A stretch of DNA of 64,000 nucleotides from Thermodesulfobacteriota bacterium (GCA_026415035.1 JAOAHX010000013.1:13717-77716), one strand, 5' to 3'; counted from the first letter of the stretch, positions 4,444-58,839 are shown. Made by a program: numbers and translations. The notes: generated by a model from the letters alone, not told the origin.

Positions 4444-4447
4444 CGAA

Positions 4448-5182: not shown

Positions 5183-5273
5183 GAAGGAGGTGATGGCAGA
5201 GAAGGACGTAAGAATGCCAAAGGTTGGAACGAGCCTCTAAAAGCAGAGGGAATCCATTTTCAAGGAGGGAGAG

Positions 5274-6386: not shown

Positions 6387-6392
6387 AGGCCC

Positions 6393-6437
6393 CTCCCCCA
6401 TCCCCGTCGAGACAAGGGATGGGGGAGCCCCTTTTTT
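6393..6437 (+). terminator. Rho-independent terminator between the TRAP binding-protein gene and the permease genes
   Basis: 12-bp GC stem CTCCCCCATCCC/GGGATGGGGGAG with an 11-nt loop, followed by T6. Confidence 0.6.
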
Positions 6438-6463
6438 CGGTCATAGAGAAAGAGTGAACCGAG

Positions 6464-8304: not shown

Positions 8305-8340
8305 TTTAGGGGCGTTCAAACCGGTTGAGGCTTTGGCCCG

Positions 8341-9519: not shown

Positions 9520-9605
9520 AGCAAGTTTCAATTTTGGGGGATGAAGGGGGTTATGGGATAGCAGAGGGTGAACAATAGACAACAAAACGAGGAGCGAGAG
9601 GACCG

Positions 9606-10580
9606 ATGCTTATTCTGGACAAAAAGGATCTGGAAGAGCTTCTGCCGATGGAAGAGGTGATAGAGGTTCTAAGGGCGGGATTCCGCGAGGTCAAAGAGGG
9701 CCGATGCGTCGTTCCGGTCCGGTTCCACCTTGCCGTCGGAGAGTATCAAGGGCAGTTTCTCTTCATGCCCGCCTACCTCTCCGGCCTGAAGCAGGCTGGG
9801 ACGAAGATCGTCTCGGTCTTTCCCCAGAATGTCTCCAGGGGAAAACCTACGATCTATGCGACCTATCTGCTCTGCGATCCGACCACCGGGGAGTTGCTGG
9901 CGGTGATGGAAGGGGCCACGCTCACGGGGATTCGCACGGGCGCCGCCTCCGGATTGGCGACTGGGTACCTCGCAAGAAAGGAGGCGAAGGCCCTCGGCGT
10001 GATCGGAACGGGCTTCCAATCTTATTTTCAGGTCAGGGCGATCCAGGCCGTTCGCTCCATCGAGGAGATCTGGGCCTACGATACCGACCCAAACAGGCTT
10101 CGGGAATTCTGCGAGAGGTTTTCGCCCTTCGTTAAGGTCCATCCCGTTTCGAGTGCCTCGGAGGTCGTGAGGCCAAGCGACATCCTGATCACCTCAACCA
10201 CTTCCACCACGCCGGTCTTTTCCGGAAGGGACCTGAAGCCCGGAACCCACATCAACGCCATCGGCGCCTTCCGTCCCGATATGCGCGAGACCGACGACGA
10301 GACCGTCCTCCGGGCCAAGATCGTTGTCGACACCTACGAGGGCTGTCTCAGCGAGGCAGGCGACCTGCTCATCCCCATGGCCGAGGGAAAGTTGAAAAAG
10401 GAGGCTATCCATGGAGATCTGGGAGACCTGGTCACCGGAAGGAAGAAGGGGAGAGAGACGGAGGAGGAGATCACCTTATTTAAATCGGTGGGCTTTGCCA
10501 TGGAGGATGTGGTGACCGCCTCCCATGCCTATGAAAAGGCAGGCCGAAGCGGGATGGGAAAGAGGATCGAGCTCTTGTAA
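9606..10580 (+). CDS. Ornithine cyclodeaminase/mu-crystallin family enzyme (cyclodeaminase or ketimine/pyrroline-2-carboxylate reductase)
   Basis: 324 aa. The family-typical N-terminus and the Rossmann GxGxQ region (LGVIGTGFQS). Strong RBS. Confidence 0.8.
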   Translation: MLILDKKDLEELLPMEEVIEVLRAGFREVKEGRCVVPVRFHLAVGEYQGQFLFMPAYLSGLKQAGTKIVSVFPQNVSRGKPTIYATYLLCDPTTGELLAVMEGATLTGIRTGAASGLATGYLARKEAKALGVIGTGFQSYFQVRAIQAVRSIEEIWAYDTDPNRLREFCERFSPFVKVHPVSSASEVVRPSDILITSTTSTTPVFSGRDLKPGTHINAIGAFRPDMRETDDETVLRAKIVVDTYEGCLSEAGDLLIPMAEGKLKKEAIHGDLGDLVTGRKKGRETEEEITLFKSVGFAMEDVVTASHAYEKAGRSGMGKRIELL

Positions 10581-10594
10581 AGGGAGGGTCGAAC

Positions 10595-12223: not shown

Positions 12224-12275
12224 TGAGGAAAGGCCGGCTCCGAAGGAGGGAATCGTACGACGAGAGGAGAATGCG

Positions 12276-13799
12276 ATGAAGGCACTGCTTGAGAAGCTCG
12301 GCATCCGTGAGGTCAACCGGGGCGCCTGTTCAGGAGCCGACCTCTGGTTCGACGATCCGGAAGGCAAGGAGTTGACCTCCTACAACCCGACCACCGGGGA
12401 GCCCATTGCCAAGGTGATCCAGGCGACGGAGAAGAGTTACGATCAGGTGGTCTCCCATGCGGTCAAGGCCTTCAAGACCTGGCGTATGGTCCCCGCGCCG
12501 AAGCGGGGGCTCCTCGCCCGGGACTTTGCCCAGCTCTTGAGGGAGTTCAAAGAACCCCTAGGCGAGCTGGTGACCCTCGAGATGGGAAAGATCAAGGTGG
12601 AAGGGATGGGGGAGGTCCAGGAGATGATCGACATCTGCGACTTCGCCGTAGGTCTCTCGAGGCAACTCTATGGGCTGACCATGCATTCGGAAAGGCCCGG
12701 CCACCGGATGTACGAGCAGTGGCATCCTCTCGGAGCCATCGGCGTGATCACGGCCTTCAACTTCCCTGTGGCGGTCTGGTCCTGGAACGCGGCCATCGCG
12801 GGCGTGTGCGGAGATACGGTCGTCTGGAAACCCTCCTCCGAAACGCCCCTCTGTGCCGTAGCCGTCCAGCACCTCGCCAACCGGATCATGGCCGATCACG
12901 GCCTATCGGGCATTTTCAACCTCGTCATCGGTCCGGGGTCGGTCATCGGTAGGAGGATGATCGACGATCCGAGGCTTCCCCTCCTCTCCTTCACAGGCTC
13001 GACCAAGATGGGTCGCCAGGTGGCCGAAGGGGTGGCCAGGAGGCTCGGACGGACGATCCTCGAATTGGGCGGAAACAACGCCATTATCGTGGCCGAGGAT
13101 GCCGATCTGGAGATGGCCGTCCGATCCATCCTCTTCGGCGCGGTGGGGACAGCGGGTCAGCGATGCACCTCGACCCGCAGGATCATCGTCCATCGCTCGG
13201 TCAGTCAGGAGTTGACCGAGAGGCTCTGCAAAGCCTATAGCCAGGTCCGGATCGGAGATCCTCTAAAGGAAGGGGTCCTGATGGGCCCCCTGGTGACGAA
13301 GGAGGCCGTCGAGGAGATGATGGCCGCCCTGGAGAAGGCGAGGCAGCAGGGCGGGGTCATCCTCTACGGGGGGAGGCGGCTTTCGGACCTTGGGGAGCGA
13401 TTCGTCGAACCGACGATCGTGAAGATGCCGGCTCAGACCGAGATCGTCCACCATGAGACCTTTGCCCCAATCCTCTACCTTATCGAATACGAGGACTTCG
13501 AGGAGGCGATCCGGATCCACAATGAAGTGCCCCAGGGGCTTTCGAGCGCCATCTTCACCCGGAGCCTGAGGACGGCCGAGCGGTTCCTCTCCCATGAGGG
13601 GTCGGACTGCGGGATCGCCAATGTCAATATCGGGACCTCGGGTGCGGAGATCGGAGGGGCCTTCGGAGGCGAAAAGGAGACCGGCGGCGGCAGGGAGTCG
13701 GGATCCGACGCCTGGAAGGGCTACATGCGGCGCCAGACCAACACGATCAACTGGTCCACGGAACTTCCCCTCGCCCAGGGCATCAAGTTCGGGGACTGA
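12276..13799 (+). CDS. ALDH7 (antiquitin)-type aldehyde dehydrogenase; alpha-aminoadipic/piperideine-6-carboxylate semialdehyde dehydrogenase-like
   Basis: ELGGNN and GQRCTS motifs. The C-terminal 'GIANVNIGTSGAEIGGAFGGEKETGGGRESG' is diagnostic of the ALDH7 family. The start was moved to an internal ATG with a GGAGGA RBS. The ORF-track start at 12021 overlaps the previous gene. Confidence 0.8.
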   Translation: MKALLEKLGIREVNRGACSGADLWFDDPEGKELTSYNPTTGEPIAKVIQATEKSYDQVVSHAVKAFKTWRMVPAPKRGLLARDFAQLLREFKEPLGELVTLEMGKIKVEGMGEVQEMIDICDFAVGLSRQLYGLTMHSERPGHRMYEQWHPLGAIGVITAFNFPVAVWSWNAAIAGVCGDTVVWKPSSETPLCAVAVQHLANRIMADHGLSGIFNLVIGPGSVIGRRMIDDPRLPLLSFTGSTKMGRQVAEGVARRLGRTILELGGNNAIIVAEDADLEMAVRSILFGAVGTAGQRCTSTRRIIVHRSVSQELTERLCKAYSQVRIGDPLKEGVLMGPLVTKEAVEEMMAALEKARQQGGVILYGGRRLSDLGERFVEPTIVKMPAQTEIVHHETFAPILYLIEYEDFEEAIRIHNEVPQGLSSAIFTRSLRTAERFLSHEGSDCGIANVNIGTSGAEIGGAFGGEKETGGGRESGSDAWKGYMRRQTNTINWSTELPLAQGIKFGD

Positions 13800-31546: not shown

Positions 31547-32755
31547 ATGAAGAAGTCGTTGATCTTTGCCGTCATCTTCGGAATCATCCTTGTCGGTCTT
31601 CCGTGGACGGGAGGGGCTCAACCCATCCGGGTCGGAGCGGTCATCAACCTGACCGGGCCTGCCTCCACTTGGGGACAATTCCACGCCAAGGGCCATACGG
31701 ACTATACGAAGTACGTGAATGAAGTGAAGGGAGGGGTGGCCGGAAGAAAGATCGATCTGACGATTGTCGATCATGCTTACAAACCTCCGGAAGGCGTCAA
31801 ACTGGTGAAGAAGTTCTGCGAGGAGAAAGTGGACATGATCGCCACCTGGGATGCCGGGACGGGCATCATGATCAAGCCCATCGTTCAGGAACACAAGATT
31901 CCCACCCTCAATTACTCCACCTTCCAGGGGCTTCTCAAACCCCCGATCGATTATATTTACCTACCTTTCGGAAGCTACGTCTTGGACTCCTATGCGGTTT
32001 TGGAATATATCAAAGCCATCCATAAGGGGAAAGATGCCCCCAAGGTTGGACTGCTGACCTACAACAATGCCTACGGCAAGGCGATCCATGACCCGAGCAA
32101 AGAGTATGCGGCCAAACACGGCATCAACATCGTGGGCATCGAGGAGTTTCCCCCGCCCACCGTCGACATCACCACGGAGGTCATGCGCCTGAAGGAGAAG
32201 GGGGCGGAATATCTCTTCGTCCAGATTCTCCCGGAGGCCATCATCCGGGCCCTGAAATCGATGGATCGGATCGGGTTTAACGTGCCGGTCTTCGGGACCT
32301 GGACCGCCACCGATCCCGACTTCTTCAAGCTTGGAAAAGGGGTGATTCGAGACCGCTTGGCCATGCAATTCTGCGGGGTGCTTCCCGGGGATAAGGTTTG
32401 GGGAATGAAGTTGATGGACGATCTCAAGACCCGGTACAAGACCGTGGACAAATTTGACACCTCTTACTGGGAAGGGGTGGTCATCGCCATGATCATGGAG
32501 AGGGCCATGCACCGGGCCTCGGGCCTCTACGGAAAGATCAATGCCGAGACGATCAACAACGCCTTGGAGACCTTCCGAAATGAGGATTTCGGAGGCCTCG
32601 TCCCCCCGATCACCTATACGAAGGAGAATCATGAGGGGTCCTTTATCGGAAGGATCGTCCAGATCCATGAGGATGCGACCTATACGCCGATGACCAACTT
32701 CTTCGTCCCGGGCAAGGGAGAGATCAAGGTCCTGAAGACGCTCAAAACGAAATAG
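31547..32755 (+). CDS. ABC transporter substrate-binding protein, Leu/Ile/Val-binding (LivK/LivJ, PBP type 1) family
   Basis: Signal peptide. The family-typical 'IRVGAVINLTGPAS' N-terminus. 402 aa. Confidence 0.8.
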   Translation: MKKSLIFAVIFGIILVGLPWTGGAQPIRVGAVINLTGPASTWGQFHAKGHTDYTKYVNEVKGGVAGRKIDLTIVDHAYKPPEGVKLVKKFCEEKVDMIATWDAGTGIMIKPIVQEHKIPTLNYSTFQGLLKPPIDYIYLPFGSYVLDSYAVLEYIKAIHKGKDAPKVGLLTYNNAYGKAIHDPSKEYAAKHGINIVGIEEFPPPTVDITTEVMRLKEKGAEYLFVQILPEAIIRALKSMDRIGFNVPVFGTWTATDPDFFKLGKGVIRDRLAMQFCGVLPGDKVWGMKLMDDLKTRYKTVDKFDTSYWEGVVIAMIMERAMHRASGLYGKINAETINNALETFRNEDFGGLVPPITYTKENHEGSFIGRIVQIHEDATYTPMTNFFVPGKGEIKVLKTLKTK

Positions 32756-37598: not shown

Positions 37599-38402
37599 AT
37601 GGAAGATCAAATCCTGCTCCAAATTAACAACATCAGCGTCGTCTACTCCGATGTGATCCAGGTGCTCAAAGGGGTCTCCTTGGTCGTCAAAAGGAGGCAG
37701 ATCGTCTCCCTTCTGGGCAGCAATGGCGCGGGGAAGACGACCACCTTGAAGGCCATCTCGGGTCTGTTAAAGCCTGAAAATGGTTATGTCACCGAAGGGT
37801 CGATCATCTACGAAGGCCATCCCATTCACAATTTCTCGCCCGAGAAGATCACCCGGTTGGGGATCATCCAGGTGATGGAGGGACGGCAACCCTTCAAATT
37901 GTTGACCGTTGAAGAGAACCTCCGCGTGGGGACCGCTACGAGGTGGGGCAAACCCTACAAGAAAGACCTCGAGATGGTCTATCACTACTTTCAACCCCTT
38001 CTGGCCCGGAGGAACCGGCTGGCCGGTTACTGCAGCGGCGGCGAGTTGCAGATGCTCGTCATGGGCCGGGCCCTCATGGCCCATCCCAAGCTCCTGCTCT
38101 TGGACGAGCCCTCCTTGGGTTTGGCTCCCTTCTTGGTGCGGGAGATCTTCGAGATCATCAAGAGGATCAACGAAGAGCAGGGGACGACGATCATGTTGGT
38201 GGAGCAGAATGCCAACATGGCCCTGCAGATTGCCACCTATGGCTATGTGATGGAGAACGGCAAGATCATGATGGAGGACGAGGCTGCCCGGTTGCGGGAA
38301 AACCCCGATGTCAAGGAATTTTACCTGGGAACCGCAACTTCAGGCGCCTTAAAATCCTACAAGGACGTTAAGGCCTACAAACGGCGCAAACGTTGGCTGT
38401 AA
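37599..38402 (+). CDS. ABC transporter ATP-binding protein (LivF-like)
   Basis: Walker A GSNGAGKTT, signature CSGGELQML, Walker B LLLLDEPS. Confidence 0.85.
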   Translation: MEDQILLQINNISVVYSDVIQVLKGVSLVVKRRQIVSLLGSNGAGKTTTLKAISGLLKPENGYVTEGSIIYEGHPIHNFSPEKITRLGIIQVMEGRQPFKLLTVEENLRVGTATRWGKPYKKDLEMVYHYFQPLLARRNRLAGYCSGGELQMLVMGRALMAHPKLLLLDEPSLGLAPFLVREIFEIIKRINEEQGTTIMLVEQNANMALQIATYGYVMENGKIMMEDEAARLRENPDVKEFYLGTATSGALKSYKDVKAYKRRKRWL

Positions 38403-38539: not shown

Positions 38540-40123
38540 ATGGGAATGATGGACATCCATATCGGAGAGATGCTCGCACGAAATGCAAGGCTCTACCCCA
38601 ACGACGTCGCCCTGGTGGAGCGGGTTCCCGAAAAGGGGATCAGAAGGGAGATCACCTGGAGGCAGTTCGATGAACAGGCCAACCGTTTTGCCAATGTCCT
38701 GTTGAATAAGGGAATCAAGAAGGGGGATAAGGTCATCCACCTCATGATGAACTCCTTGGAATGGCTCGTGGCCTACTTTGGAATCATCCGGACCGGTGCC
38801 TGGGCCGTACCCCTCAATTTTCGTTTCACCAGTGGCGATATCAAATATTGCTGCGAGGTGGCCGAACCCAAAGGTCTGGTCTTCGGTGAGGAATTTATCG
38901 ATCGGGTGACCGCCATCAAGGACGAACTTCCCACGGTGAAGGACTACATCTTCGTCGGCAAAGACGTCCCCTCTTTTGCGGACTCCTTCGAACAGGCCCT
39001 CGAGAAGGTTCCTTCCACCGCGCCCGAGGTCCCTATTGGCTACGATGATCCCTGCGGCCTCTACTTTACCTCTGGAACGACGGGACAGCCGAAACCGATC
39101 CTCCTCACCCACAAGAACATGGTCTGTGCCTGCATCACGGAGAATCATCACCACTACCAGACTCGAAAGGACACCTTCGTCCTCATCCCACCCCTCTATC
39201 ACACCGGCGCCAAGATGCACTGGTTCGGGAGTTTCATCGTGGGCGGAAAAGGGGTGATCCTCAAAGGGGTTCAACCCGAATGGATCCTTCAAACCATGAG
39301 CGAAGAGAAGGCCTCCATCATCTTCCTGCTCGTCCCCTGGGCCCAGGATATCCTCGTAAAGCTCGATAGCGGTGAGGTCAAACTCGACCGCTATGACCTG
39401 AGGCACTGGAGGCTGATGCACATCGGCGCCCAGCCCGTCCCGCCCTCGCTGGTGAAACACTGGAAGGAGTACTTCCCCAAGATGCAGTATGACACCAATT
39501 ACGGCCTCAGCGAGTCGACCGGGCCGGGATGTGTCCACCTCGGCATCGAGAACGAACACAAGGTGGGCGCCATCGGCCTGCCGGGATTTAACTGGGAGGC
39601 CCGTATCGTGGACGAGGAAGGCAACGATGTCCGGAAGGGAGAGGTGGGAGAGCTGGTCGTCAGGGGAGACGGGGTGATGAGGGAGTATTATAAAAATCCG
39701 GAGGCCACGGCCAAGGCCATCCGGAAGGGTTGGCTCTATACGGGAGACATGGGAAGGGTCGATGAGGACGATTTCATCTACCTCGTCGATCGAAAGAAAG
39801 ACCTGATCATCTGTGGCGGTGAGAATGTCTTTCCCGTGGAGGTGGAGGATTTCCTTCACACCCTGCCCGGGGTCAAGGACGTGGCGGCCATTGGGTTTCC
39901 GGATGAACGCCTCGGGGAGATCGTGGGGGTTATCGTGGAGGTCGTCCCCGGGAAGACCCTGACCGAAGAAGAGGTGCTGAAGTTCTGCGAGGCCTTGCCC
40001 AAGTATAAACGGCCCCGGAAGGTCTTCTTCGGAGAGGTCCCCCGGAATCCAACGGGAAAGATCGAAAAACCGAAATTGAGAAAGAAGTACATCGGCACGG
40101 AGGAAGCCTTCCGGATCAAATAA
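38540..40123 (+). CDS. AMP-dependent synthetase/ligase (class I acyl-/aryl-CoA ligase)
   Basis: YFTSGTTGQPKP motif. 527 aa. Strong RBS. Confidence 0.85.
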   Translation: MGMMDIHIGEMLARNARLYPNDVALVERVPEKGIRREITWRQFDEQANRFANVLLNKGIKKGDKVIHLMMNSLEWLVAYFGIIRTGAWAVPLNFRFTSGDIKYCCEVAEPKGLVFGEEFIDRVTAIKDELPTVKDYIFVGKDVPSFADSFEQALEKVPSTAPEVPIGYDDPCGLYFTSGTTGQPKPILLTHKNMVCACITENHHHYQTRKDTFVLIPPLYHTGAKMHWFGSFIVGGKGVILKGVQPEWILQTMSEEKASIIFLLVPWAQDILVKLDSGEVKLDRYDLRHWRLMHIGAQPVPPSLVKHWKEYFPKMQYDTNYGLSESTGPGCVHLGIENEHKVGAIGLPGFNWEARIVDEEGNDVRKGEVGELVVRGDGVMREYYKNPEATAKAIRKGWLYTGDMGRVDEDDFIYLVDRKKDLIICGGENVFPVEVEDFLHTLPGVKDVAAIGFPDERLGEIVGVIVEVVPGKTLTEEEVLKFCEALPKYKRPRKVFFGEVPRNPTGKIEKPKLRKKYIGTEEAFRIK

Positions 40124-40146: not shown

Positions 40147-40941
40147 ATGGGGATTGCCCTCGGGATCGATATCGGATCGGCGGTTTCGAAAGGGGTGGCC
40201 CTCCATCCGGAAGGCCTCCTCAGCTCGTTCGATTGCCCCTCCGGTGGACATCTCCGATCGACCGCGGAAAAGGTGAGGACGGCCTTGTTGGAGCGTGCAG
40301 GAATCGCCGCCACCCAAAACCTTAGGACGGTGGCCACCGGGTACGGGGCCAAACAGGTCTATTATGCCGATGAGGTCAGACCCGAGGTCGCCTGCCTGGC
40401 CAAGGGCATCTCCTCACTCCTCCCTTCCGTGAGGACGGTGATCGATATCGGAGACCTCTATACCAAAGTCCTCCACACCGATGGGAAGGGGGGGGTAACG
40501 AACTTTGTTTTAAGCGGAAAATGCGCGGGAGGCAGCGGAAGGATCCTTCAGGTGATGGCCAAGGTCCTCCAAGTCAAGGTGGAGGAGATCGGTGAACTCT
40601 CTTTGAAATCGACCCGGAGGGTCGAATTTAACACCGGATGTGCGGTCTTTGCGGAGTCGGAGGCCATCTCCCGGCTCTCTCAAGAGACGAAAAAGGAGGA
40701 CCTCCTCGCGGGTCTCCACCGCGCCCTGGCAGCGCAGATCCAGAGCCTCGCCGAACGGATCGGCATCGAGAAGGATGTGGCCCTCACCGGAGGGGGCGCC
40801 CTGGACATCGGTCTCGTAGCGGCCTTCCGAGAGCTTTGGGGAGAGGCGATCCTGGTCCCGGCCAACCCCAATCTGGTGGCGGCCTTAGGCGCTGCCCTTT
40901 TTGCAAGGGAAGGGCTCGGCCCATCGATTGAAAGCCTCTAA
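40147..40941 (+). CDS. BadF/BadG/BcrA/BcrD/HgdC-family ATPase ('activase'-type electron-transferring subunit) 1
   Basis: N-terminal GIDIGSAVSKGV (ASKHA fold). VIDIGDLYTKV. The Cys region 'GKCAGGSGRIL'. 264 aa. Confidence 0.8.
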   Translation: MGIALGIDIGSAVSKGVALHPEGLLSSFDCPSGGHLRSTAEKVRTALLERAGIAATQNLRTVATGYGAKQVYYADEVRPEVACLAKGISSLLPSVRTVIDIGDLYTKVLHTDGKGGVTNFVLSGKCAGGSGRILQVMAKVLQVKVEEIGELSLKSTRRVEFNTGCAVFAESEAISRLSQETKKEDLLAGLHRALAAQIQSLAERIGIEKDVALTGGGALDIGLVAAFRELWGEAILVPANPNLVAALGAALFAREGLGPSIESL

Positions 40942-41030
40942 GGGATGGGATATAGTTAAATCATAGGGATCGAATTCGGGCGATCGGGAAAAAGGGTTCC
41001 CCGGAGGCCGGTTGAGAGAGGAGCGACTCG

Positions 41031-42194
41031 ATGAGCGACACACCCTCGGCGATCTTTTCTATCGTGAAGTCGAATTATGAGGATTACGGACGGAGAGCCA
41101 GAGAACTGAAAGAGGCCGGAAGGACGATCATCGGTTATATCTGCTCCTTCGTCCCCCTGGAGATTATCACCGCCTCCGGTGCCATCCCTTTTCGCGTCCG
41201 GGGAAACCCGCACGAGCCCATCACGAAAGGCGACACCCTCCTTGAGACGATCGTCTGCCCCTATTACCGGAGCTGTTTCGACCTCTCCGTGAAGGAGAAG
41301 TATTCTTTCCTCTCCGGCATGGTGATCCCACACGGGTGCGACAGCATGGTGAGGAGTTACAGCGTCTGGAGCTACAGTCTGCCCTATCCCTATTTCCACT
41401 TTGTCAATACCCCAACGGTCTGCGAGGAGTCTTCCTTCGAATTCTTCGAGGCCGAGCTCCTCACCTATAAAAGGAGCCTCGAACAGTTCCTGGGAAAGGA
41501 GATCACCCGGCAGGACCTCGAGCAGGCCATCCGGCTCCATAACGAGCTTCGCGACCGGGTGAGAGCCCTCTATGACCTGAGAAGATCGGACCCTCCCCTC
41601 CTGTCGGGGACCGAACTGACCATGACCCTCACGGTGGGATCGAGCCTTCCGGTCGAAGAAGCGACCCAACTCTTTGACCAGGTTCTGGCCGAGGCCAAGA
41701 CCAGGGGGAGATCCCCCTTAAAAAAGGGACCGAGAATTCTGGTCGACGGGGCGTGTCTGGACAACATCGAACTGATCAAGCTGGTGGAAGAGCTGGGGGG
41801 CAATGTCGTGGCCGACACGATCTGCAACGGGGCCAGGGACCAGCTTCCCAAGACCGATGTCGATCAGGAACCTCTCAAGGCGCTGGCCCGTCGCTATTTG
41901 GACAAGATCAACTGCCCCAAGACGTACCGGGCCAACAAGGCCGGGACTTTCGAAGGGGACATTGCGAATCGGTTCGGCGATATCGGCGCCTATGCAAAGG
42001 CCTTCGGTGTGCAGGGAGCGATCCTCTATGTCTATAAGTACTGCGACCCCTTCGGTTTCGAGGTTCCGGCCCGGAAGGCCTACTATCAATCGATCCAGGT
42101 CCCCCTTCTCCACCTCGAAGATATCTATTCCGCCGGGACCCTGGGACAATTGAAGACGAGGATTCAGGCCTTCTTGGAGATGATCGGGGGGTAG
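41031..42194 (+). CDS. 2-hydroxyacyl-CoA dehydratase/benzoyl-CoA reductase family subunit (HgdB/BcrC/BadD-like)
   Basis: 387 aa. N-terminal 'RTIIGYICSFVPLEIITASGAIPFRVRG', typical of the D-component/BcrC family. Conserved Cys residues. Confidence 0.75.
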   Translation: MSDTPSAIFSIVKSNYEDYGRRARELKEAGRTIIGYICSFVPLEIITASGAIPFRVRGNPHEPITKGDTLLETIVCPYYRSCFDLSVKEKYSFLSGMVIPHGCDSMVRSYSVWSYSLPYPYFHFVNTPTVCEESSFEFFEAELLTYKRSLEQFLGKEITRQDLEQAIRLHNELRDRVRALYDLRRSDPPLLSGTELTMTLTVGSSLPVEEATQLFDQVLAEAKTRGRSPLKKGPRILVDGACLDNIELIKLVEELGGNVVADTICNGARDQLPKTDVDQEPLKALARRYLDKINCPKTYRANKAGTFEGDIANRFGDIGAYAKAFGVQGAILYVYKYCDPFGFEVPARKAYYQSIQVPLLHLEDIYSAGTLGQLKTRIQAFLEMIGG

Positions 42195-42247
42195 GGCGAT
42201 TTAAGAGGAAGCCCCCATCCGCAAGGGAAATAGAGGAGAGCGACGGA

Positions 42248-43651
42248 ATGGCTGAGGAGCAGAAAGAGACAAAACCGAAGAAGAGGATGACCGCGACCCG
42301 GGCGGCCGCCTCGGTCGGCGCCATGGTGAAAGAGTTCATCACGGGGGCGCTCCAGGCCCGGGCCGAAGGGAAGCAGAAGCTCGCCTATACCTTCATCGTC
42401 TGCCACCACGAGGAGATCTTCCGGGCCCTCGACGTGGTGCCGATCTGGACCGAAAACTTCGCGGGCATCTGCGGCGCCAAAAGGGATGCCGAACGGTTCC
42501 TCCAGCGGGCCGAATCGTTGGGTCTATCCCGATCCTTATGCACCTATGCCCTTTGCGGGATCGGTTTCGACCAGTGGAGGGAGGAGTTGGGTCAGATGCC
42601 TCCGGATGCCCCCTGGGGCGGAATGCCGAGGCCCGACTTCATGATCTCCAGCGGTCAGATCCTCTGCGATCCGCGCTCCAAATGGTACCAAGCCTCTCAG
42701 CAATTCATGCCCGATGTGCCCATCTACAACATCGATCTTCCCTACCCTCTCTTTCATCCCCATCGCGACCACCGGGAGGTCCTGGGGTATTACCATCGCT
42801 ACATCGTCCAACAGTTACGAGGCCTGGTGGCCTTCCTCGAGGAACAGACAAAGAAGAAGATGGATTATGACCGTCTGAGAGAGCTGGTGGACTTGAGCGA
42901 CCGCACCTGGGACCTGATCGAGGAGACCTACTCGCTCCGAAAGGCGGTCCCCTGTCCCATGGGAACGGGCGATGCGATGAACACGATGGTGCCCATCAAC
43001 TTCATGATGGCGACCCAGAGGGCCTACGACTTCTTCGTCGAACTGAAGAAGGAGTTAGAAGAGAAGATTGCCAAAGGAGAGGGCGAGGTTGAAAACGAGA
43101 AGTACCGGCTCATGTGGGGTGGGGGGTTGCCCGCCTGGTATGCCCTGAGCGACTTCAACTATTTCAACAGCAAAGGGGCCTCCTTTCCCGTGGAGACGAC
43201 CTACCGGATGGTGGCCCCTCTCAAGGAGATGGACCTGCCGGAGACGAAAGACCCGATCGAACACCTGGCCTGGCGATGGCTCGGATACTGGACGTTCTGG
43301 TACGATCGGGCCAGGAGGCGGCCGGGTTCGGAGCCGGACGTCGAACGGCTGATCCACCGGATCGAGGAGTACAAGATCGACGGGGTCGTCATGCACGAGG
43401 CCTTCTCTTGTCGGACCTGGCACGTGGGCCTCATCTGGCAGTTACACCAGTTGGCCAAAATTTACAAACCCATTCCGGTCTATGTGGTGGGTAAGGATGG
43501 ACAAAGAGAAAAAATCTACCGGGAGCTTCCCTCCCTGATCCTCGAAAGCGACATCATCGATATCACCTCCTATTCCGAGGTGGATACGAGACAGAAGATC
43601 GACGCCTTCATCGAAACCCTCGAGTCGATCCGCCTCAACAGAGCGGCCTGA
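42248..43651 (+). CDS. 2-hydroxyacyl-CoA dehydratase/benzoyl-CoA reductase family subunit (HgdA/BcrB/BadE-like)
   Basis: 467 aa. The region 'AYTFIVCHHEEIFRALDVVPIWTENFAGICGAKRDAERFLQRAESLGLSRSLCTYALCGIGF' matches the family. Confidence 0.75.
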   Translation: MAEEQKETKPKKRMTATRAAASVGAMVKEFITGALQARAEGKQKLAYTFIVCHHEEIFRALDVVPIWTENFAGICGAKRDAERFLQRAESLGLSRSLCTYALCGIGFDQWREELGQMPPDAPWGGMPRPDFMISSGQILCDPRSKWYQASQQFMPDVPIYNIDLPYPLFHPHRDHREVLGYYHRYIVQQLRGLVAFLEEQTKKKMDYDRLRELVDLSDRTWDLIEETYSLRKAVPCPMGTGDAMNTMVPINFMMATQRAYDFFVELKKELEEKIAKGEGEVENEKYRLMWGGGLPAWYALSDFNYFNSKGASFPVETTYRMVAPLKEMDLPETKDPIEHLAWRWLGYWTFWYDRARRRPGSEPDVERLIHRIEEYKIDGVVMHEAFSCRTWHVGLIWQLHQLAKIYKPIPVYVVGKDGQREKIYRELPSLILESDIIDITSYSEVDTRQKIDAFIETLESIRLNRAA

Positions 43652-43670
43652 TCCTCTGCGAGCTTGACCC

Positions 43671-44513
43671 TTGACCTTCTACTTCGCGGGCATCGATATC
43701 GGTTCCACCATGACGAAGGCGGTGATCCTCGAAAAGGGGATCCTGGCCTCCGTCATCGGTCCCACAGGTCCGGAACAGCGCCGTCTGGCGCACCGGGTGA
43801 TGGAAGAGGCCTTGAAGCGGGCCTCCCTTCCCTTCTCCCGCCTCACCTTCATCGTTGCCACAGGTTACGGAAGGCTCAACGTCCCTTTTGCTGACAAGCA
43901 GTTCACCGAGATCACCTGCCACGCCAGGGGCATCGTCCATCTCCTTCCCCGGGCCCGGACGATCATCGATATCGGAGGCCAGGATGTGAAGGGGATCAAG
44001 GTCGATGCCACGGGAAAGGTCGTCGATTTCGTGATGAACGATAAGTGTGCGGCCGGAAGCGGCCGCTTTATCGAGGTGATCGCGGAGACGCTCGGCGTTC
44101 CGCTGGATCAGGTGGGCGAGCTCTCCCTTCAGAGCCAGAATCCGGCGACGATCAGCAACCTCTGCACCATCTATGCCCAGCAGGAGGTGGCCGCAAGCCT
44201 CGCTGAGGGAGTTCCCCTACCCGATCTGCTCGCCGGCGTCCACCTCTCCCTTGCCGACCGGATCGTCCGGATGGTGAAACGGCTGAAGGTGGAGGAGGCG
44301 GTCATCGTCACAGGGGGCGGTGCAAAAAACAGGGGGCTCCTCAAGGTCCTCTCGGAGCTGTTGGGCCAAAAGATCCTCGTCCCAGAAGAGCCCCTCCTCA
44401 CGGGTGCCCTCGGCGCCGCGCTCTTGGGAAGGGAGTTGGTGGATAAGGCCCTAAAAAACAAGACGCCCCTCGAAACCAAAGAGCGGGTCTTCAAAGAGGT
44501 CGAAATCCTTTGA
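43671..44513 (+). CDS. BadF/BadG/BcrA/BcrD/HgdC-family ATPase ('activase'-type) 2
   Basis: N-terminal GIDIGSTMTKAV, IIDIGGQDVKGIKV, NDKCAAGSGRFIEV. 280 aa. Only a TTG start precedes the GIDIGS motif, so the start is uncertain. Confidence 0.75.
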   Translation: MTFYFAGIDIGSTMTKAVILEKGILASVIGPTGPEQRRLAHRVMEEALKRASLPFSRLTFIVATGYGRLNVPFADKQFTEITCHARGIVHLLPRARTIIDIGGQDVKGIKVDATGKVVDFVMNDKCAAGSGRFIEVIAETLGVPLDQVGELSLQSQNPATISNLCTIYAQQEVAASLAEGVPLPDLLAGVHLSLADRIVRMVKRLKVEEAVIVTGGGAKNRGLLKVLSELLGQKILVPEEPLLTGALGAALLGRELVDKALKNKTPLETKERVFKEVEIL

Positions 44514-44574
44514 TCCGGGGTTGCATCGGAACGAAGGCCATGGCAAGAGAAGGAAGGATCTAAGGAGCCGCACC

Positions 44575-45036
44575 ATGGAGGAGAGGGGTTTCACCCTGAT
44601 CGAGATCATCATCCTCATCGTCATTCTGGGGATTCTAAGCGCCATTGTCATCCCGAGGTACCTCGACCTTTCGAGATCGTCCGAAAAGGCCGTGGCCGAG
44701 CAACTGGTCGGCTCCATGAGGTCGGCCCTGACCCTCTATTATTCGAACTGGGTGGCGAAACAGAAGGGAACGCTTAAGAACTTCAGAGATAACATCTCCA
44801 TCCCCAATTTTGTGAAGGTGGCGGGAGATGCGATGGGGCTCACGGGAAACGAGACCCTGGTCTTGGAGAGGCATATGACCTCCCGGTTCGTGAACGACCA
44901 GCCTTCCTCCATCAAAGACTATGCCCAGGACGGATCCGGGAGGCACCTTCGTTTCGTCTTTAAGAACGGGGCCATCCTGGATATCTATTACGATCGAGAG
45001 AAACCTGCCATCGATGCCGTTTTCACCGGATTCTAA
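44575..45036 (+). CDS. Prepilin-type N-terminal cleavage/methylation domain protein (type IV pilin or pseudopilin)
   Basis: Class III signal 'MEERG|FTLIEIIILIVILGILSAIVIP' with Glu at +5. ATG with an AGGAG RBS. The ORF-track TTG extension was rejected. Confidence 0.7.
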   Translation: MEERGFTLIEIIILIVILGILSAIVIPRYLDLSRSSEKAVAEQLVGSMRSALTLYYSNWVAKQKGTLKNFRDNISIPNFVKVAGDAMGLTGNETLVLERHMTSRFVNDQPSSIKDYAQDGSGRHLRFVFKNGAILDIYYDREKPAIDAVFTGF

Positions 45037-51108: not shown

Positions 51109-51201
51109 AACAGGCTCTCTCGGCTAGGATTTTTCAGACGAGAAGGGAAGCGTTTTGTGGAAGATCGAAGCGGTGAGCTGAACCGACCCTGTCCCTCCTT
51201 G

Positions 51202-52332
51202 ATGCACCTCTTCCTCGCTTTCTTCAAATTGGGAGCCACGGCCTTCGGCGGACCCGCGATCGTCGCCTACATGCGGCAGTTGGCGGTGAATCAGAAGCGT
51301 TGGCTGGATGAAAAGACAGCCCGGGATGGGATCGCCCTGTGTCAGACCATCCCAGGCGCCACCGCCATGCAGATGTCGGCCTATGTGGGGTTTAGGGCCA
51401 GAGGCATAGGAGGGGCCGCCGTCAGTTTCATCGGATTTGGGCTTCCGGCCTTTCTTCTCATGATGATCCTCTCGGCCTTCTACGCCAAGACGCATACCCT
51501 GCCTTCGGTTGTTTCCATCTTCAATGGACTCCAAGCCATCGTCGTGGCGATCGTGGCCTATGCCACGTTCTCCTTCGGCAGGCCCTTGGTTAAAACATGG
51601 CAGAACGGGGTGTTGGCCTTGACGGCTGCAGCTCTTTTCGGGCTGAAGCTCCATCCCATCCTGGTCATCTCCTTCGCCGCCTTCTTAGGGGTCGCGCTCT
51701 ACTTCAAACAGCCCGTTCAACTCGGGGAAAAACCTCCCACCAAGTCGTCTCCTCCACCCTCCCTCCTCTGGTTAATCTTCGCAGCCCTCTTGGGGACGGC
51801 CGCCCTTTTCAGGCTCAACAGAAGGCTTTTTGATTTGGCGATGCTGATGTTCAGAATCGATCTGTTTGCCTTTGGGGGCGGTTATGCCTCTGTCCCCATG
51901 ATGTTCCACGAGGTCGTCGAGGTCCGTCGATGGATGGATGGACCCACGCTCTTAAACGGCATTGCCCTGGGACAGGTGACTCCCGGGCCCATTGTGATCA
52001 CCGCCACCTTCATCGGATACTTGTGGCAGGGGTTTTGGGGTGGGGTGGTCGCCACAGCCAGCGTCTTTTTGCCCTCCTTCCTCATCGTCATCGGGGCAAT
52101 TCCCTATTTCGACCGGATCCGATCCTCTCCCCATTTGATAAAGGTTTTCACGGGGATATTCTGTTCTTTCGTGGGACTTCTCTTAACGGTCACCTTCCGT
52201 TTTGCAATCCATCTTCCTTGGGATCTCCCCCGTCTCCTCATCACGCTCGGGGCCTTAGCAGCCCTTTTCCTGAAGGTGGGACTCCTCTGGGTCGTTCTTT
52301 TGGGAGCAGGGGTCTCTTGGATCGTCTTATAG
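51202..52332 (+). CDS. chrA: Chromate ion transporter (CHR family, fused two-domain ChrA)
   Basis: The two repeats each carry the family motif (LGATAFGGPA and FAFGGGYA). About 377 aa. Confidence 0.8.
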   Translation: MHLFLAFFKLGATAFGGPAIVAYMRQLAVNQKRWLDEKTARDGIALCQTIPGATAMQMSAYVGFRARGIGGAAVSFIGFGLPAFLLMMILSAFYAKTHTLPSVVSIFNGLQAIVVAIVAYATFSFGRPLVKTWQNGVLALTAAALFGLKLHPILVISFAAFLGVALYFKQPVQLGEKPPTKSSPPPSLLWLIFAALLGTAALFRLNRRLFDLAMLMFRIDLFAFGGGYASVPMMFHEVVEVRRWMDGPTLLNGIALGQVTPGPIVITATFIGYLWQGFWGGVVATASVFLPSFLIVIGAIPYFDRIRSSPHLIKVFTGIFCSFVGLLLTVTFRFAIHLPWDLPRLLITLGALAALFLKVGLLWVVLLGAGVSWIVL

Positions 52333-52419: not shown

Positions 52420-52488
52420 AGATTGAGAAAAAACATATCGGGCGATGAAGTTCGCCATTAAAGGTCCCCAGCTTTATCGGGGAATGAT

Positions 52489-52524
52489 AACTTCTACTGG
52501 GTCCACTGGTAGAAGTTTTTTTTT
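52489..52524 (+). terminator. Rho-independent terminator or attenuator about 100 nt downstream of the promoter and upstream of the DUF2267-like gene
   Basis: Stem AACTTCTAC/GTAGAAGTT with an 11-nt loop, followed by T9. Confidence 0.6.
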
Positions 52525-52611
52525 CAAGGGAATATCTTCATCCCAGTTTTCGCATCTTGTGCAGGAGGAGGGATGGGGAAGGAGTGGTCTGAGAGGAAAG
52601 GAGGTAAGAGG

Positions 52612-52899
52612 ATGGAGACGAGGAAAGCGTTTCTCGAAGCGGTCATGAAAATCGCCCATCTCGAAGACTTAAAACAGGCGGATTTAGCCGCCCGGGCGGT
52701 CATCGCATTGACCAAAGCGATCATCGGAGAAGAACTTTCCCAGAAGATCGCGGAGGTCTCCCCGCCTGACCTTCGCGAGGGGTGGGAGTCGATCAAGCCT
52801 GCCTACCTCTTTGATGCCTACGAGCGAGATGAATTGCTGTTTGAGACAGGGGAGGTCTCGGAGGTCTCTGGGGAAACTCCTTACCTCACCCGGCCGTGA
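52612..52899 (+). CDS. Hypothetical protein (DUF2267-like)
   Basis: 95 aa. Excellent RBS (AGGAAAGGAGG). The helical pattern resembles DUF2267. Confidence 0.35.
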   Translation: METRKAFLEAVMKIAHLEDLKQADLAARAVIALTKAIIGEELSQKIAEVSPPDLREGWESIKPAYLFDAYERDELLFETGEVSEVSGETPYLTRP

Positions 52900-53057: not shown

Positions 53058-53759
53058 ATGACCGATCCCTACAGTGCCCTGATAATCGCCGCCCTTATCT
53101 TTCTCGGAAGCCTCCTTTCCGTCGAGACGGGGGTGTCGGTGGCCCTCATCGAGATCACCCTTGGCGTGATCGGCGGAAATTTTCTCGGTCTCGCACCTAC
53201 CCCTTGGCTGACCTTTCTGGCAGGTTTCGGAGGAATTCTTCTAACTTTCCTGGCAGGAGCGGAGGTCGATCCCATCATCCTGAGAGAAAAGGCGAAGGAG
53301 AGTTTATGGATCGGTGGCCTCTCATTCCTCGCGCCTTTTTTAGGAACGATTGCTTATTGCTACTGGGTGGCTCACTGGTCTTTAAACGCTTCGGTCATTG
53401 GAGGAATCGCCCTCTCGACCACTTCTTTGGCTGTGATCTATGCTGTTCTGGTAGAGACAGGATTAACCCATTATGAAATCGGTAAGATCCTCATGGCTTC
53501 CTGTTTCATCACCGACCTGGGCACAGCCCTGGCTTTAAGCCTCATCTTTGCGGAATTTAATATCTTCACCCTCCTTTCTGCCGGAGTCTCTGCCTTCGTC
53601 ATCCTGGTCATACCCAAGATAGCTCCCTTCCTATTCAAACGATACGGCGACCGGGTGATTGAGCCTGAAATCAAATTTCTCTTCTTCATGCTTTTCCTTT
53701 TCATTTATGTTTCTAAAGTGGGATCGAGCCATGCGATCCTGCCCGCCTTTGTGGTATGA
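53058..53759 (+). pseudogene. Truncated cation:proton antiporter (CPA2/Na+/H+ exchanger family) N-terminal fragment
   Basis: 233 aa with 6 TM helices and the 'AGAEVD' motif. Full-length members are about 380-600 aa. No continuation is found in any frame. It ends 5 nt from the truncated DUF86 gene. Confidence 0.5.
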
Positions 53760-54808: not shown

Positions 54809-55903
54809 TCAGGGTCGGCAGGAGAGGTGACAGACTCCCGTCGGTGTCTCGACGGCATAAGGAAAATATCTCTTCTTGAACCAGAGGGCCACATTGACAA
54901 GGCTGATCAGGACCGGGACTTCCATCAAGGGGCCGATCACCGCGGCAAAGGCCTGGCCGGAGTTGATTCCGAAGACGGCGACGGCAACGGCGATGGCGAG
55001 TTCGAAATTGTTCGAGGCCGCTGTAAAACTTAACGTCGTAGCTTGCTCGTAAGTCGCCCCGACTTTCTTGGAGAAATAGAAAGAGACCAGGAACATCACC
55101 ACGAAATAGATCAGCAAGGGAATGGCCACCCGGATCACATCGAGGGGGAGACGGACGATGTATTCCCCTTTGAGGGAGAACATGACGAGGATGGTGAAGA
55201 GGAGGGCGATCAACGTGATCGGGCTGATCTTGGGAACGAACTTCGTTTCGTACCAGGTTTTGCCCTTTGTCTTTAACCCGATCAGCCTGGAAAGAACCCC
55301 GGCAATGAAAGGGATGCCGAGGTAGATGAAGACGCTCTCCGCAATCTGACCGATCGTGATTTGAACGGCCATGCCTTTCAGCCCGAGCAAGGGTGGGAGG
55401 ACCGTGATGAAGATGTAGGCGTAGATGGAGAAGAAGAGGACCTGAAAGATGGAATTAAAGGCAACGAGCCCCGCGCAGTATTCCCGATCTCCCGAGGCCA
55501 GATCGTTCCACACGATCACCATGGCGATGCACCGGGCCAGGCCGATCAAGATCAATCCAACCATATATTCGTGATGCCCCGAAAGAAAGGTGATCGCCAG
55601 AAGAAACATCAGGACCGGGCCGATGACCCAGTTCTGGATGAGGGAGAGGGCAAGGACCTTATAGTTTCGAAAGACGTGGGCCATCTCTTCGTATCTCACC
55701 TTGGCCAGGGGGGGATACATCATGAGGATGAGTCCGATGGCGATGGGGATGTTCGTCGTGTCCACCTGGAACTGGTCCCAGAAGTGGACGATGCCGGGAA
55801 AGACATAGCCCCAGCCCACACCGACAAACATCGCTAAGAAAATCCATAAGGTTAAGTAACGATCCAGGAACGAGAGTCTTTTAGTGATTTGTTCTCCTGC
55901 CAT
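54809..55903 (-). CDS. acr3: Arsenite efflux permease, ACR3 family
   Basis: 364 aa with 10 TM helices. ACR3 family N-terminus ([16 protein letters not shown]). RBS AGGAG. Confidence 0.85.
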
Positions 55904-57801: not shown

Positions 57802-58839
57802 CTATTCGAAAAGATATCCAAAGCCCAATCCGGTCACCGTCGCCATGAGGATGACGAGGAAAATATAGGTGAGCCCCTTCTTGAATCCCATCACGCGGAC
57901 GATCACGATCATACTGGGCAGACTTAAGGCAGGCCCTGCTAACAGGAGAGCAAGGGCCGGTCCTCTGCCCATTCCCATATCGAGGAAAGCTCTGATAATG
58001 GGGACCTCTGTCAGCGTGGCGAAATACATGAGGGCTCCCACGACAGAAGCGATGAGGTTGGAGCGGAGGGAATTTCCCCCTACCCATTGTTGGATAAGAC
58101 TTTCTGGAATAAGGGCTTTGATCATCCCTGCGGCAAAAACCCCGATGAGGAGCCAGGGCGCGATCAATTTGACGAAGCCCCAGGTGGCTGAGAACCATTC
58201 TTTGACCTCTTCCCGGTCATACCAGCTCTTTAAAGCGACCAAGAGAACCAAAAAGGATATCCCTGTTAAAATCCATTCCTTCTGCGAGGCAAAGACCAGT
58301 ATCCCTATTAAGGAGGCAAAATAGACAAGAAGGACAGGCCCTTTCTTTCCTCCCTCGGGAATGCCCAGGACCAACGATTGGTCCCTCTTTTCCTTTTCCT
58401 CCTTATGGAAGAGCAAGGCCATGATGAGACCGATGACGATGGAGAAGGCCACCGCCCCGATTGCCCTCCCCGCCCCGAGGTCCAGGCCTAACAACCTTGC
58501 CGAATAGACGATGGCGAGCACATTGATGGCCGGGCCGGAGTAAAGAAAAGTGGTCGCAGGTCCGATTCCCGCCCCCCTTTGATAAATGCCTGAAAACAAG
58601 GGCAACACCGTGCAGGAGCAGACCGCGAGAACGGATCCTGAAACGGAGGCGACTCCATAGGATAACACCCGGTTGGCTTTTGCTCCAAAATACTTCAGCA
58701 CCGAAGCCTGCGAGACGAAGACCCCGATGGCCCCGGCGATAAAAAAAGCGGGGACCAGACAGGTCAGGACATGGGCCGATAGGTAATCGAGAAACGTCTC
58801 CCATCCACTTTTGAGAATATCGGCGAGCAATGATTTCAC
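57802..58839 (-). CDS. arsP: ArsP-type permease (DUF318/PF03773 family), putative organoarsenical efflux permease
   Basis: 345 aa with 8-10 TM helices. Conserved CSC motif (LAVCSCTVLP) in a TM helix, as in the ArsP TPFcSCS motif. Confidence 0.7.
   Translation of the reverse strand: MKSLLADILKSGWETFLDYLSAHVLTCLVPAFFIAGAIGVFVSQASVLKYFGAKANRVLSYGVASVSGSVLAVCSCTVLPLFSGIYQRGAGIGPATTFLYSGPAINVLAIVYSARLLGLDLGAGRAIGAVAFSIVIGLIMALLFHKEEKEKRDQSLVLGIPEGGKKGPVLLVYFASLIGILVFASQKEWILTGISFLVLLVALKSWYDREEVKEWFSATWGFVKLIAPWLLIGVFAAGMIKALIPESLIQQWVGGNSLRSNLIASVVGALMYFATLTEVPIIRAFLDMGMGRGPALALLLAGPALSLPSMIVIVRVMGFKKGLTYIFLVILMATVTGLGFGYLFE

Follow-up and report, generated by a model that had tools for sequence, protein, structure and literature searches.

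The four genes at positions 40147–44513 of the window, by which we mean the whole 64,000-nucleotide stretch of DNA from a Thermodesulfobacteriota bacterium that was analyzed (GCA_026415035.1, JAOAHX010000013.1:13717–77716), encode one enzyme of the benzoyl-coenzyme A (CoA) reductase/2-hydroxyacyl-CoA dehydratase (BCR/HAD) radical family. The enzyme has a build like that of the BZD-type class I reductases and belongs to a separate, uncharacterized clade; it is a variant within a known family and not a new kind of system. Judged from its residues, it is not an orthologue of benzoyl-CoA reductase. The reading that we favor, at a probability of roughly 45%, is that it would reduce a CoA ester other than benzoyl-CoA by two electrons (or carry out a reductive elimination on it), with ATP consumed stoichiometrically, because its cofactor set and its two-subunit ATPase match those of the reductases rather than those of the dehydratases. 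The initial annotation had described two ATPase genes flanking a BcrC/HgdB-like and a BcrB/HgdA-like gene. All four open reading frames (ORFs) were found to be intact, on the plus strand and at coordinates identical to those given there:

40147–40941, plus strand: ATPa, electron-activating ATPase subunit; 264 aa, ATG start; PF01869 BcrAD_BadFG, 161 bits; TIGR00241, 204 bits against a cut-off of 125
41031–42194, plus strand: C-like (BzdN/BcrC/HadC-type) subunit; 387 aa; PF06050 HGD-D, 258 bits
42248–43651, plus strand: B-like (BzdO/BcrB/HadB-type) active-site subunit; 467 aa; PF06050 HGD-D, 178 bits
43671–44513, plus strand: ATPb, electron-activating ATPase subunit; 280 aa, TTG start; PF01869 BcrAD_BadFG, 198 bits; TIGR00241, 261.7 bits

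The Pfam scores of the four ORFs are far above chance. Two matches to PF01869, two to PF06050, scores above the TIGR00241 cut-off for both ATPases and cluster cysteines in all subunits place the enzyme, at the level of sequence, in the BCR/HAD radical enzyme superfamily. The assignment of the catalytic subunits was borne out by PDB sequence matches to N- and O-type chains and by the predicted fold. The C-like protein matched BzdN (8s02_B) at an E-value of 1e-37, DCCP and HadC at about 1e-30 and MbdN at 4e-14 (55.7 bits), while the B-like protein matched BzdO at 2e-19 (73 bits), MbdO at 3e-17 and HadB at 3e-14. An AlphaFold model of the B-like subunit (pLDDT 89) superimposed on BzdO, MbdO and HadB with TM scores of 0.77–0.80 at ≈21% sequence identity, and fitted DCCP and the β-type chains less well. 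Because all three chains fall in this same range, the fold comparison was unable to tell a reductase from a dehydratase.

The C-like subunit carries a six-cysteine signature for a double-cubane cluster that is known only from BzdN and DCCP. Residues C38, C76, C103, C265, C295 and C338 align with the six cysteines of both proteins and are invariant in the 73 sequences on which the cysteine columns were judged. HadC lacks two of the six (the equivalents of C38 and C265), and MbdN lacks three. In BzdN, the six cysteines hold an [8Fe-9S] double cubane that acts as an electron store for at least two electrons, and it has been argued that neither double cubane was kept in the dehydratases (Fuchs et al. 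2025, PMC11971306). The 387-aa protein thus has the full set of cysteines expected of a BZD-type N subunit, from which the cluster itself is predicted. A seventh cysteine, C242, is invariant in 73/73 clade members and absent from BzdN, DCCP, HadC, MbdN and the sister clades described below.

In the B-like subunit, C98, C140, C388, E69 and Y100 are invariant and correspond to Cys95, Cys128, Cys380, Glu65 and Tyr97 of BzdO. These residues are common to the whole family rather than specific to the BZD type, since MbdO and HadB have them too. The three cysteines would ligate a [4Fe-4S] cluster and leave one of its irons open. In BzdO, a [4Fe-4S]-OH2 cluster is bound through Cys95, Cys128 and Cys380, with Glu65 and His131 at the water ligand, and the benzoyl-CoA is surrounded by Trp46, Tyr97, Leu302, Leu383, Gln274 and Tyr298 (PMC11971306). 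We aligned the window clade with six BZD-type O subunits and judged its residues on 80 orthologues. These were the best 80 of 123 loci with a close relative of the 467-aa protein, found in a scan of one genome per species; all counts of loci below refer to these 80. The following differences were found:

BzdO Ser/Gly44: Ile50 in the window clade
BzdO Trp46: Cys52 in the window clade
BzdO His131: Arg143 in the window clade
BzdO Gln274: Leu294 in the window clade
BzdO Tyr298, with a seven-residue insertion: absent in the window clade
BzdO Leu302: Val or Ala in the window clade (V315 in the window protein)
BzdO Glu381-Gly382: Arg-Thr in the window clade
BzdO Leu383: Trp391 in the window clade

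Trp46, Gln274, Tyr298 and Leu302 are kept in all six BZD-type O sequences, and His131 in all five in which this position is covered; residue 44 is either Ser or Gly, and Leu383 occurs in four of the six. By this alignment, every BzdO-specific residue of the benzoyl pocket or of catalysis is replaced in the window clade. The clade has a signature of its own, C52-H53-H54, R143 and W391, which is invariant or nearly so in the 80 orthologues; Cys52 is followed by His-His in 62 of them. The SCRT motif after the third cysteine and the lack of the BZD insertion are both shared with MbdO. We considered the possibility that C52 was a retained ligand of a double cubane and rejected it: upon re-alignment, C52 fell on the position of BzdO Trp46, two residues away from the ligand position, and the two C-terminal ligands are also absent from this subunit.

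In the NCBIfam search, no subunit reached the equivalog cut-off of any curated Bcr, Bzd, Had or DCCP model. Among matches at E ≤ 0.001, the best for the C-like subunit was the double_cubane model NF040772 (204.6 bits against a cut-off of 350), followed by TIGR03190 bzdN (139.4 against 453.8), bcrC (131.6 against 421) and HadC NF052456 (124.9 against 700). The best match of the B-like subunit was HadB NF052455 (99.5 against 750), followed by TIGR03191 bzdO (84 against 448.6), bcrB (67.6 against 486.6) and NF040772 (60.7 against 350). No Hgd, Fld or Lcd model was among the matches of either catalytic subunit at this threshold. The two ATPases scored 123.9 and 180.7 against TIGR03192 bzdQ (cut-off 380.2), 120 and 154 against the BcrA model (578), and 96 and 147 against the BcrD model (313). 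The HadB cut-off was thus missed sevenfold, the HadC cut-off sixfold and all Bcr and Bzd cut-offs by a factor of at least two. Sequence identity is ≈27% between the C-like subunit and BzdN and ≈21% between the B-like subunit and BzdO.

In an exhaustive search of representatives of clusters formed at 50% identity, 1189 clusters proved to be related to the 467-aa protein, and over 150 of them score above 126 bits to it, compared to 73 bits for BzdO. The clade is therefore part of a large uncharacterized radiation, far from every characterized enzyme. This placement was based on scores, signatures and PDB chains rather than on full-length BzdO, BcrB, HgdA, FldB or LcdA references or a complete tree; a search seeded with BzdO yielded mainly partial proteins. 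The initial annotation had proposed to discard the reductase reading if the genes fell within a characterized dehydratase clade or if one ATPase were a pseudogene. The model scores, the cluster search and the ATPase tree (see below) all set the genes apart from the characterized dehydratases, and both ATPase genes are intact, retain their cluster cysteines and lie beside the catalytic genes in dozens of genomes.

The two ATPases are 41% identical to each other, and each is 34–44% identical to HadI, HgdC and MbdQ. The best PDB match of ATPa is HadI (2e-56), and that of ATPb is MbdQ (1.9e-69), with HadI next to it at 3.8e-68. In a neighbor-joining tree, ATPa and ATPb formed old sister lineages, with longer branches for ATPa. 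C126 and C165, the two cysteines that bridge a shared [4Fe-4S] cluster in such ATPases, are kept in both. In every orthologue, ATPa has the motifs GSAxSK and D[VI]GDLY[ST]K (DIGDLYTK in the window) in place of the GSTxxK and DxGGQDxK of the family. ATPb has the canonical phosphate motifs GSTMTK and DIGGQDVK, and its CTIWAQQE replaces CTVFAESE. The phosphate motif of MbdP, DIGGQTMK, is partly degenerate, as in ATPa. These patterns suggest that ATPa and ATPb would form an obligate asymmetric heterodimer like MbdP/MbdQ, unlike the single-gene activators of the dehydratases and of DCCP. Among the systems matched, every dehydratase or DCCP system has a single activator (HadI, HgdC, DCCP-R), and two are found only in the reductase MbdONPQ.

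The initial annotation had also regarded the HgdC-like size of both ATPases as a peculiarity. Such sizes are normal for BZD- and MBR-type reductases (269 aa in the MbdQ chain, 273 aa in MbdP and 293 positions in the bzdQ model), so the argument from size carries no weight; the large BcrA is confined to the Thauera type.

The enzyme shares features with several known systems. It resembles BzdNOPQ of Aromatoleum sp. CIB (BzdNO, 8S02) in having two small ATPases and an N/O catalytic heterodimer, with the six double-cubane cysteines in the N-type subunit and the three cluster cysteines, the catalytic Glu and the Tyr in the O-type subunit, and BzdN and BzdO are the best PDB sequence matches of its catalytic subunits. 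It differs from BzdNOPQ in the low identity and missed cut-offs given above, in its pocket residues including Leu302, in its gene order (ATPase-N-O-ATPase instead of N-O-P-Q) and in the absence of linked ferredoxin and downstream pathway genes. The MbdONQP and BcrCBAD systems (9G87, 9GAI) likewise have a heterodimeric ATPase with one less canonical subunit. On the other hand, MbdN has only 3/6 cysteines, the cut-offs of the BcrA, BcrB, BcrC and BcrD models were missed, and there is no large BcrA-type subunit here. HadBC with HadI, and the Hgd, Fld and Lcd systems, share the fold and the three-cysteine active-site cluster with its conserved Glu, but have one ATPase gene rather than two. DCCP with its activator DCCP-R (Carboxydothermus hydrogenoformans; 6ENO, 7YYL) has all six cysteines of the C-like subunit, but each of its two identical subunits carries a double cubane, its ATPase is likewise homodimeric and no CoA-ester substrate is known for it, unlike the predicted heterodimer with one double-cubane subunit encoded here. 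The tetrahydronaphthoyl-CoA reductase encoded by thn (ncr) is also an ATP-dependent, class I-like reductase of strictly anaerobic Desulfobacterota, and strain NaphS2 has both systems. We considered whether the NaphS2 homologue might itself be the thn/ncr operon. This was rejected: thn has the order C-B-A-D, with a ferredoxin and β-oxidation genes after it, and the NaphS2 copy was set apart from it by gene order and neighbors.

In the 80 loci, the 467-aa protein is 68–95% identical to that of the window. The hosts are nearly all labeled Desulfobacterota (Syntrophaceae, Desulfatiglandales and Desulfobacteraceae) and include Syntrophus buswellii DM-2, strain NaphS2 and the benzene degrader ORM2a. 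The order ATPa-C-B-ATPb, which the initial annotation had rightly called atypical, is conserved in 57 of the 80 loci, with two diverged ATPase genes flanking the catalytic genes, unlike the characterized dehydratases with their single homodimeric activator; most of the exceptions are truncated by contig ends, and in ORM2a the second ATPase is displaced a few kilobases upstream. Compared to the window proteins, the orthologues have median identities of 64% (ATPa), 72% (C-like subunit), 85% (B-like subunit) and 72% (ATPb), and it is therefore the active-site subunit that is most constrained. The start codon of ATPb is TTG in 34 orthologues and ATG in 35.

The surroundings of the four genes vary. 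In S. buswellii, they are on their own; the genes around them are yidC, jag, mnmE, a deacetylase-like gene, a LuxR-type response regulator and a Sir2-family gene. The NaphS2 copy comes after a histidine kinase and a sigma-54 response regulator, and an AraC-type regulator lies on its other side. In ORM2a, the locus adjoins an acyl-CoA dehydrogenase, which the authors of that genome assigned as a non-decarboxylating glutaryl-CoA dehydrogenase, an ETF and an EMO-like protein. Among the ORFs scanned near the cluster in these three hosts, we found no ferredoxin, dienoyl-CoA hydratase, dehydrogenase of a ring-degradation pathway or ring hydrolase. The expression supplements for NaphS2 listed only another paralogue, NPH_3614. 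The acyl-proteome paper on S. aciditrophicus contained no text relevant to the clade, and nothing on it was found in the literature on class I reductases in Syntrophus, on the MBR structure or on family phylogenies.

The interpretation in the initial annotation was borne out in part: the four subunits, the two co-conserved ATPases and the double-cubane signature are in favor of a class I BCR-type build, and the dehydratase-like neighborhoods of sister clades weaken the reductase reading. In the mechanism that we propose, an organic acid would be imported by a Liv-type ABC system, probably co-transcribed with the enzyme, and activated by the ligase encoded 23 nt upstream of ATPa, so that the substrate is most likely the CoA ester of that acid. 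The ATPa/ATPb heterodimer, in which each subunit would contribute two cysteines to a single shared [4Fe-4S] cluster, would receive an electron from some low-potential donor. The binding and hydrolysis of ATP, for the most part probably at ATPb with its canonical site, would then drive this electron onto the catalytic heterodimer. There, the 387-aa subunit may take up and store electrons on its [8Fe-9S] double cubane and pass them on to the three-cysteine [4Fe-4S] cluster with its open iron in the 467-aa subunit, where the CoA thioester would be converted to a ketyl-type radical. Complex formation, electron path, CoA-ester substrate and net reaction are inferences; observed directly were the gene content and its conservation, the cysteine ligand sets, the asymmetry of the ATPase motifs, the loss of the BzdO pocket and the gene neighborhoods.

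Several observations weigh against such a reductase. Sister clades occur in Chloroflexota, Syntrophaceae, Thermodesulfobacteriota and Spirochaeta-labeled genomes, where most members are 41–51% identical to the 467-aa protein and the nearest group 65–68%. They have the same six-plus-three cysteine pattern, with the six in the β-type partner, and no adjacent ATPase genes. An NAD-dependent D-2-hydroxyacid dehydrogenase (2-Hacid_dh) is found in 3/5 sister loci and a family III CoA-transferase in two of the five (L083 and L085), and further neighbors include TRAP or Liv-type importers, CoA ligases, thiolases, OYE-type reductases and, once, a 2-oxoacid:ferredoxin oxidoreductase. D-2-hydroxyacid dehydrogenases and family III CoA-transferases accompany characterized dehydratases such as Had, Fld and Hgd. 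Inside the clade itself, 8 of the 80 loci have a GlcD-type FAD 2-hydroxyacid dehydrogenase that includes a CCG iron-sulfur module, together with a ligase and a thiolase. The neighborhoods of the sister clades, of these loci and of the ORM2a genes are those expected for a 2-hydroxyacyl-CoA dehydratase and not for an aromatic ring reductase; because sister clades with the same cysteines have such neighbors, the double cubane may not be diagnostic of a reductase. The best NCBIfam match of the B-like subunit is HadB rather than BzdO. No electron-donor or ferredoxin gene was linked to the cluster in the window, S. buswellii or NaphS2 loci scanned. In proteomes of benzene-grown ORM2a, the neighboring dehydrogenase and ETF were abundant, and the probable C-like protein WAC06985, an accession matched by consecutive numbering and gene order, had no listed spectra. 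Finally, a stoichiometric ATP cost would be unfavorable for energy-limited strict anaerobes such as the hosts, by the reasoning in PMC11971306.

The main rival reading, somewhat less probable than the reductase, is that the enzyme is of the 2-hydroxyacyl-CoA dehydratase type, carrying out a redox-neutral radical dehydration or hydration with an ancestral double cubane as electron relay and a dedicated heterodimeric activator. ATP and one electron would then be needed in catalytic amounts only, which suits energy-limited syntrophs, and the CoA ester of an imported 2-hydroxy acid would be converted to an enoyl-CoA for β-oxidation. In addition to the sister and in-clade neighborhoods, the acyl-CoA dehydrogenase, ETF and EMO-like protein next to the ORM2a locus, the resemblance of the GGLPAW motif in the B-like subunit to EGIPCW of HadB, and HadI as the top PDB match of ATPa are consistent with this type. 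The characterized dehydratases, however, work with one homodimeric activator and no longer possess the double cubane, while here two diverged ATPases are conserved together with the catalytic genes, and neither HadB nor HadC cut-off is approached. Furthermore, the window and its closest relatives lack both a hydroxyacid dehydrogenase and a CoA-transferase; elsewhere in the clade, the GlcD-type dehydrogenase is found in the eight loci mentioned above, and 2-Hacid_dh and CoA_transf_3 occur in the sister clades.

A bolder proposal, which we consider unlikely but worth stating, is that the clade stands for a third kind of function within the BCR/HAD family. Its double-cubane enzyme would always consist of four subunits and would belong to obligate anaerobes that are short of energy; the activator would be asymmetric, with one degenerate nucleotide site, and the reaction would be one that has yet to be assigned to any gene. 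The asymmetry of the activator might lower the ATP cost per electron, and one candidate for the reaction is a reductive dehydroxylation, or a different reductive elimination, of an acyl- or aryl-CoA with a hydroxy or other substituent. If this were true, new enzymology, and not ordinary dehydratases, would also make up the surrounding radiation of more than 150 clusters at 50% identity, in which the members sampled have a BzdNO-like set of cofactors.

An improbable alternative is a DCCP-like reductase acting on a small non-CoA molecule, for which the ligase and transporter genes would be functionally unrelated neighbors. NF040772 is the top NCBIfam match of the C-like subunit, and the four genes stand alone among unrelated genes in S. 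buswellii and NaphS2. Against this, the score of 204.6 bits falls well short of the model's cut-off, a single six-cysteine subunit is paired here with an α/O-type subunit where DCCP is a homodimer, a ligase is linked to the cluster in about 26 of the 80 loci, and an 11-gene block including the transporter is conserved (see below).

The least credible reading takes the enzyme for a genuine BZD-type class I reductase of benzoyl-CoA (or of a close aryl-CoA): the names given by public pipelines (“bcr-type benzoyl-CoA reductase subunit C” and “bzd-type N subunit” from JGI, and KEGG K04112 in ORM2a), the PDB matches to BzdN and BzdO and the aromatic degraders among the hosts point that way, but the benzoyl-pocket and catalytic residues of BzdO are replaced, the Bcr and Bzd cut-offs are missed, more than 150 clusters outscore BzdO, no dienoyl-CoA hydratase, ring-cleavage or ferredoxin gene was found among the ORFs scanned near the cluster, the NaphS2 copy is not thn/ncr, and ORM2a, which handles benzoyl-CoA with a Bam-type class II reductase, has no listed spectra for WAC06985 on benzene. 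The analysis thus gives no indication of benzoyl-CoA or a close aryl-CoA as substrate; an analogue of benzoyl-CoA had been one of the candidates in the initial annotation.

These labels have consequences. JGI, KEGG and Prokka-style pipelines call the genes “benzoyl-CoA reductase subunit B/C”, NCBI calls them “2-hydroxyacyl-CoA dehydratase”, and at least one study read such Prokka calls as a marker of ATP-dependent aromatic ring reduction in Syntrophaceae, where BlastKOALA found none (PMC10936416). The active-site comparison indicates that ring reduction is an unsafe conclusion from such labels. What the labels cover is a strongly conserved, ATP-consuming radical enzyme, with no assigned reaction, present in about 120 species-level genomes of syntrophs and sulfate reducers that are important for anaerobic carbon turnover. 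The clade and its relatives pair a BzdN-type double-cubane signature with dehydratase-like neighborhoods, and can therefore serve as a test of the double cubane as a marker of two-electron reductases. Experiments on this are feasible, since cultured hosts exist (S. buswellii DM-2 and NaphS2).

In the window, the four genes form the end of an 11-gene block on the same strand, in the order SBP-LivG-AMP1-LivH-LivM-LivF-AMP2-ATPa-C-B-ATPb, with internal gaps of 9–137 nt. The seven genes that precede ATPa are:

31547–32755, plus strand: periplasmic substrate-binding protein (SBP) of a Liv-type ABC importer, first gene of the block; PF13458 Peripla_BP_6, 152.7 bits
32795–33622, plus strand: LivG-like ABC ATP-binding protein; PF00005, PF12399
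33649–35595, plus strand: AMP1, transporter-associated acyl-CoA synthetase; 648 aa; PF00501, PF23562
35615–36493, plus strand: LivH-like ABC permease; PF02653
36519–37589, plus strand: LivM-like ABC permease; PF02653; LivM-like in NCBIfam
37599–38402, plus strand: LivF-like ABC ATP-binding protein; PF00005; NF008626 LivF, 219 bits, under the cut-off
38540–40123, plus strand: AMP2, acyl-CoA ligase; 527 aa; PF00501, PF13193; best NCBIfam match PRK06187, 428.8 bits against a cut-off of 476

The AMP1 ORF opens at 33451, with the ATG at 33649 as the probable start, giving 648 aa compared to 642–648 aa in the orthologues. AMP2, the adjacent ligase to which the initial annotation had correctly pointed, ends 23 nt before the start of ATPa and presumably makes the CoA-ester substrate; its homologue lies directly upstream, on the same strand, in the ≈26 of 80 loci with a linked ligase. 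Its best PDB matches (FadD13, FadD5, feruloyl-CoA synthetase and 4-coumarate ligase) do not indicate a specificity, and the PDB search with the binding protein returned a generic Liv-type match only, with no clue to the substrate. The whole 11-gene block recurs in independent contigs (L001, L086 and L087), where the downstream genes differ. On its 5′ side in the window are smc, gltX, alaS and recA, and on its 3′ side a pilin-like ORF followed by unrelated genes.

In agreement with the initial annotation, no small ferredoxin, dienoyl-CoA hydratase, ring-cleavage or other gene usually linked to benzoyl-CoA reductases was present among the ORFs scanned within ≈10 kb on either side. No sigma-54 promoter was found upstream of the cluster in NaphS2 or in the window, scans for sigma-70 promoters and terminators gave results near background, and no Rfam element was found near the four-gene operon. 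The pilin-like ORF (44521–45036, plus strand; 171 aa, TTG start) has a prepilin N-methylation motif and begins 7 nt after the ATPb stop codon. It is probably outside the unit, because it was not found 3′ of the cluster in the relatives examined (L086 and L087).

In one Desulfobacterota locus (L033, 661–19241), the cluster lies inside a long island on the same strand. The 5′ part encodes a fused GlcD-CCG dehydrogenase (865 aa), a ligase, a thiolase, a CxxCxxCC protein and ATPa. A TetR regulator is inserted between ATPa and the C-like gene, followed by C, B, ATPb, a second ligase, TRAP DctPQM and an Amidohydro_2 protein. The nearest outgroup (65–68% identity) has a conserved block in L085 (5039–13648), L088 (5104–15583) and L089 (3316–13795), consisting of a family III CoA-transferase, a DMSO-reductase-type molybdoenzyme, two HGD-D genes, COXG and a CoxM/S/L-like molybdenum hydroxylase, with no ATPase gene nearby. 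This block looks like an unstudied pathway in its own right.

Two further regions of the window were recorded. A fluoride riboswitch (52432–52503, plus strand; Rfam RF01734, 39.4 bits, gathering score 34) closely precedes a small ORF (52573–52899) and a Na+/H+-exchanger-family ORF (53058–53759). A group of ion and oxyanion transporter genes is found near it, encoding a chromate transporter (51157–52332, plus strand), an SBF-family protein (54809–55903, minus strand) and an ArsP-type permease (57802–58839, minus strand). At 925–13799 on the plus strand, a separate, catabolic-looking cluster encodes a xanthine-dehydrogenase-family molybdenum subunit, a DHOD-like Fe-S protein, a GntR regulator, TRAP DctP and DctM, a DAO-family FAD oxidoreductase, an ornithine cyclodeaminase-family protein and, in two overlapping ORFs (10595–12223 and 12021–13799), aldehyde dehydrogenases.

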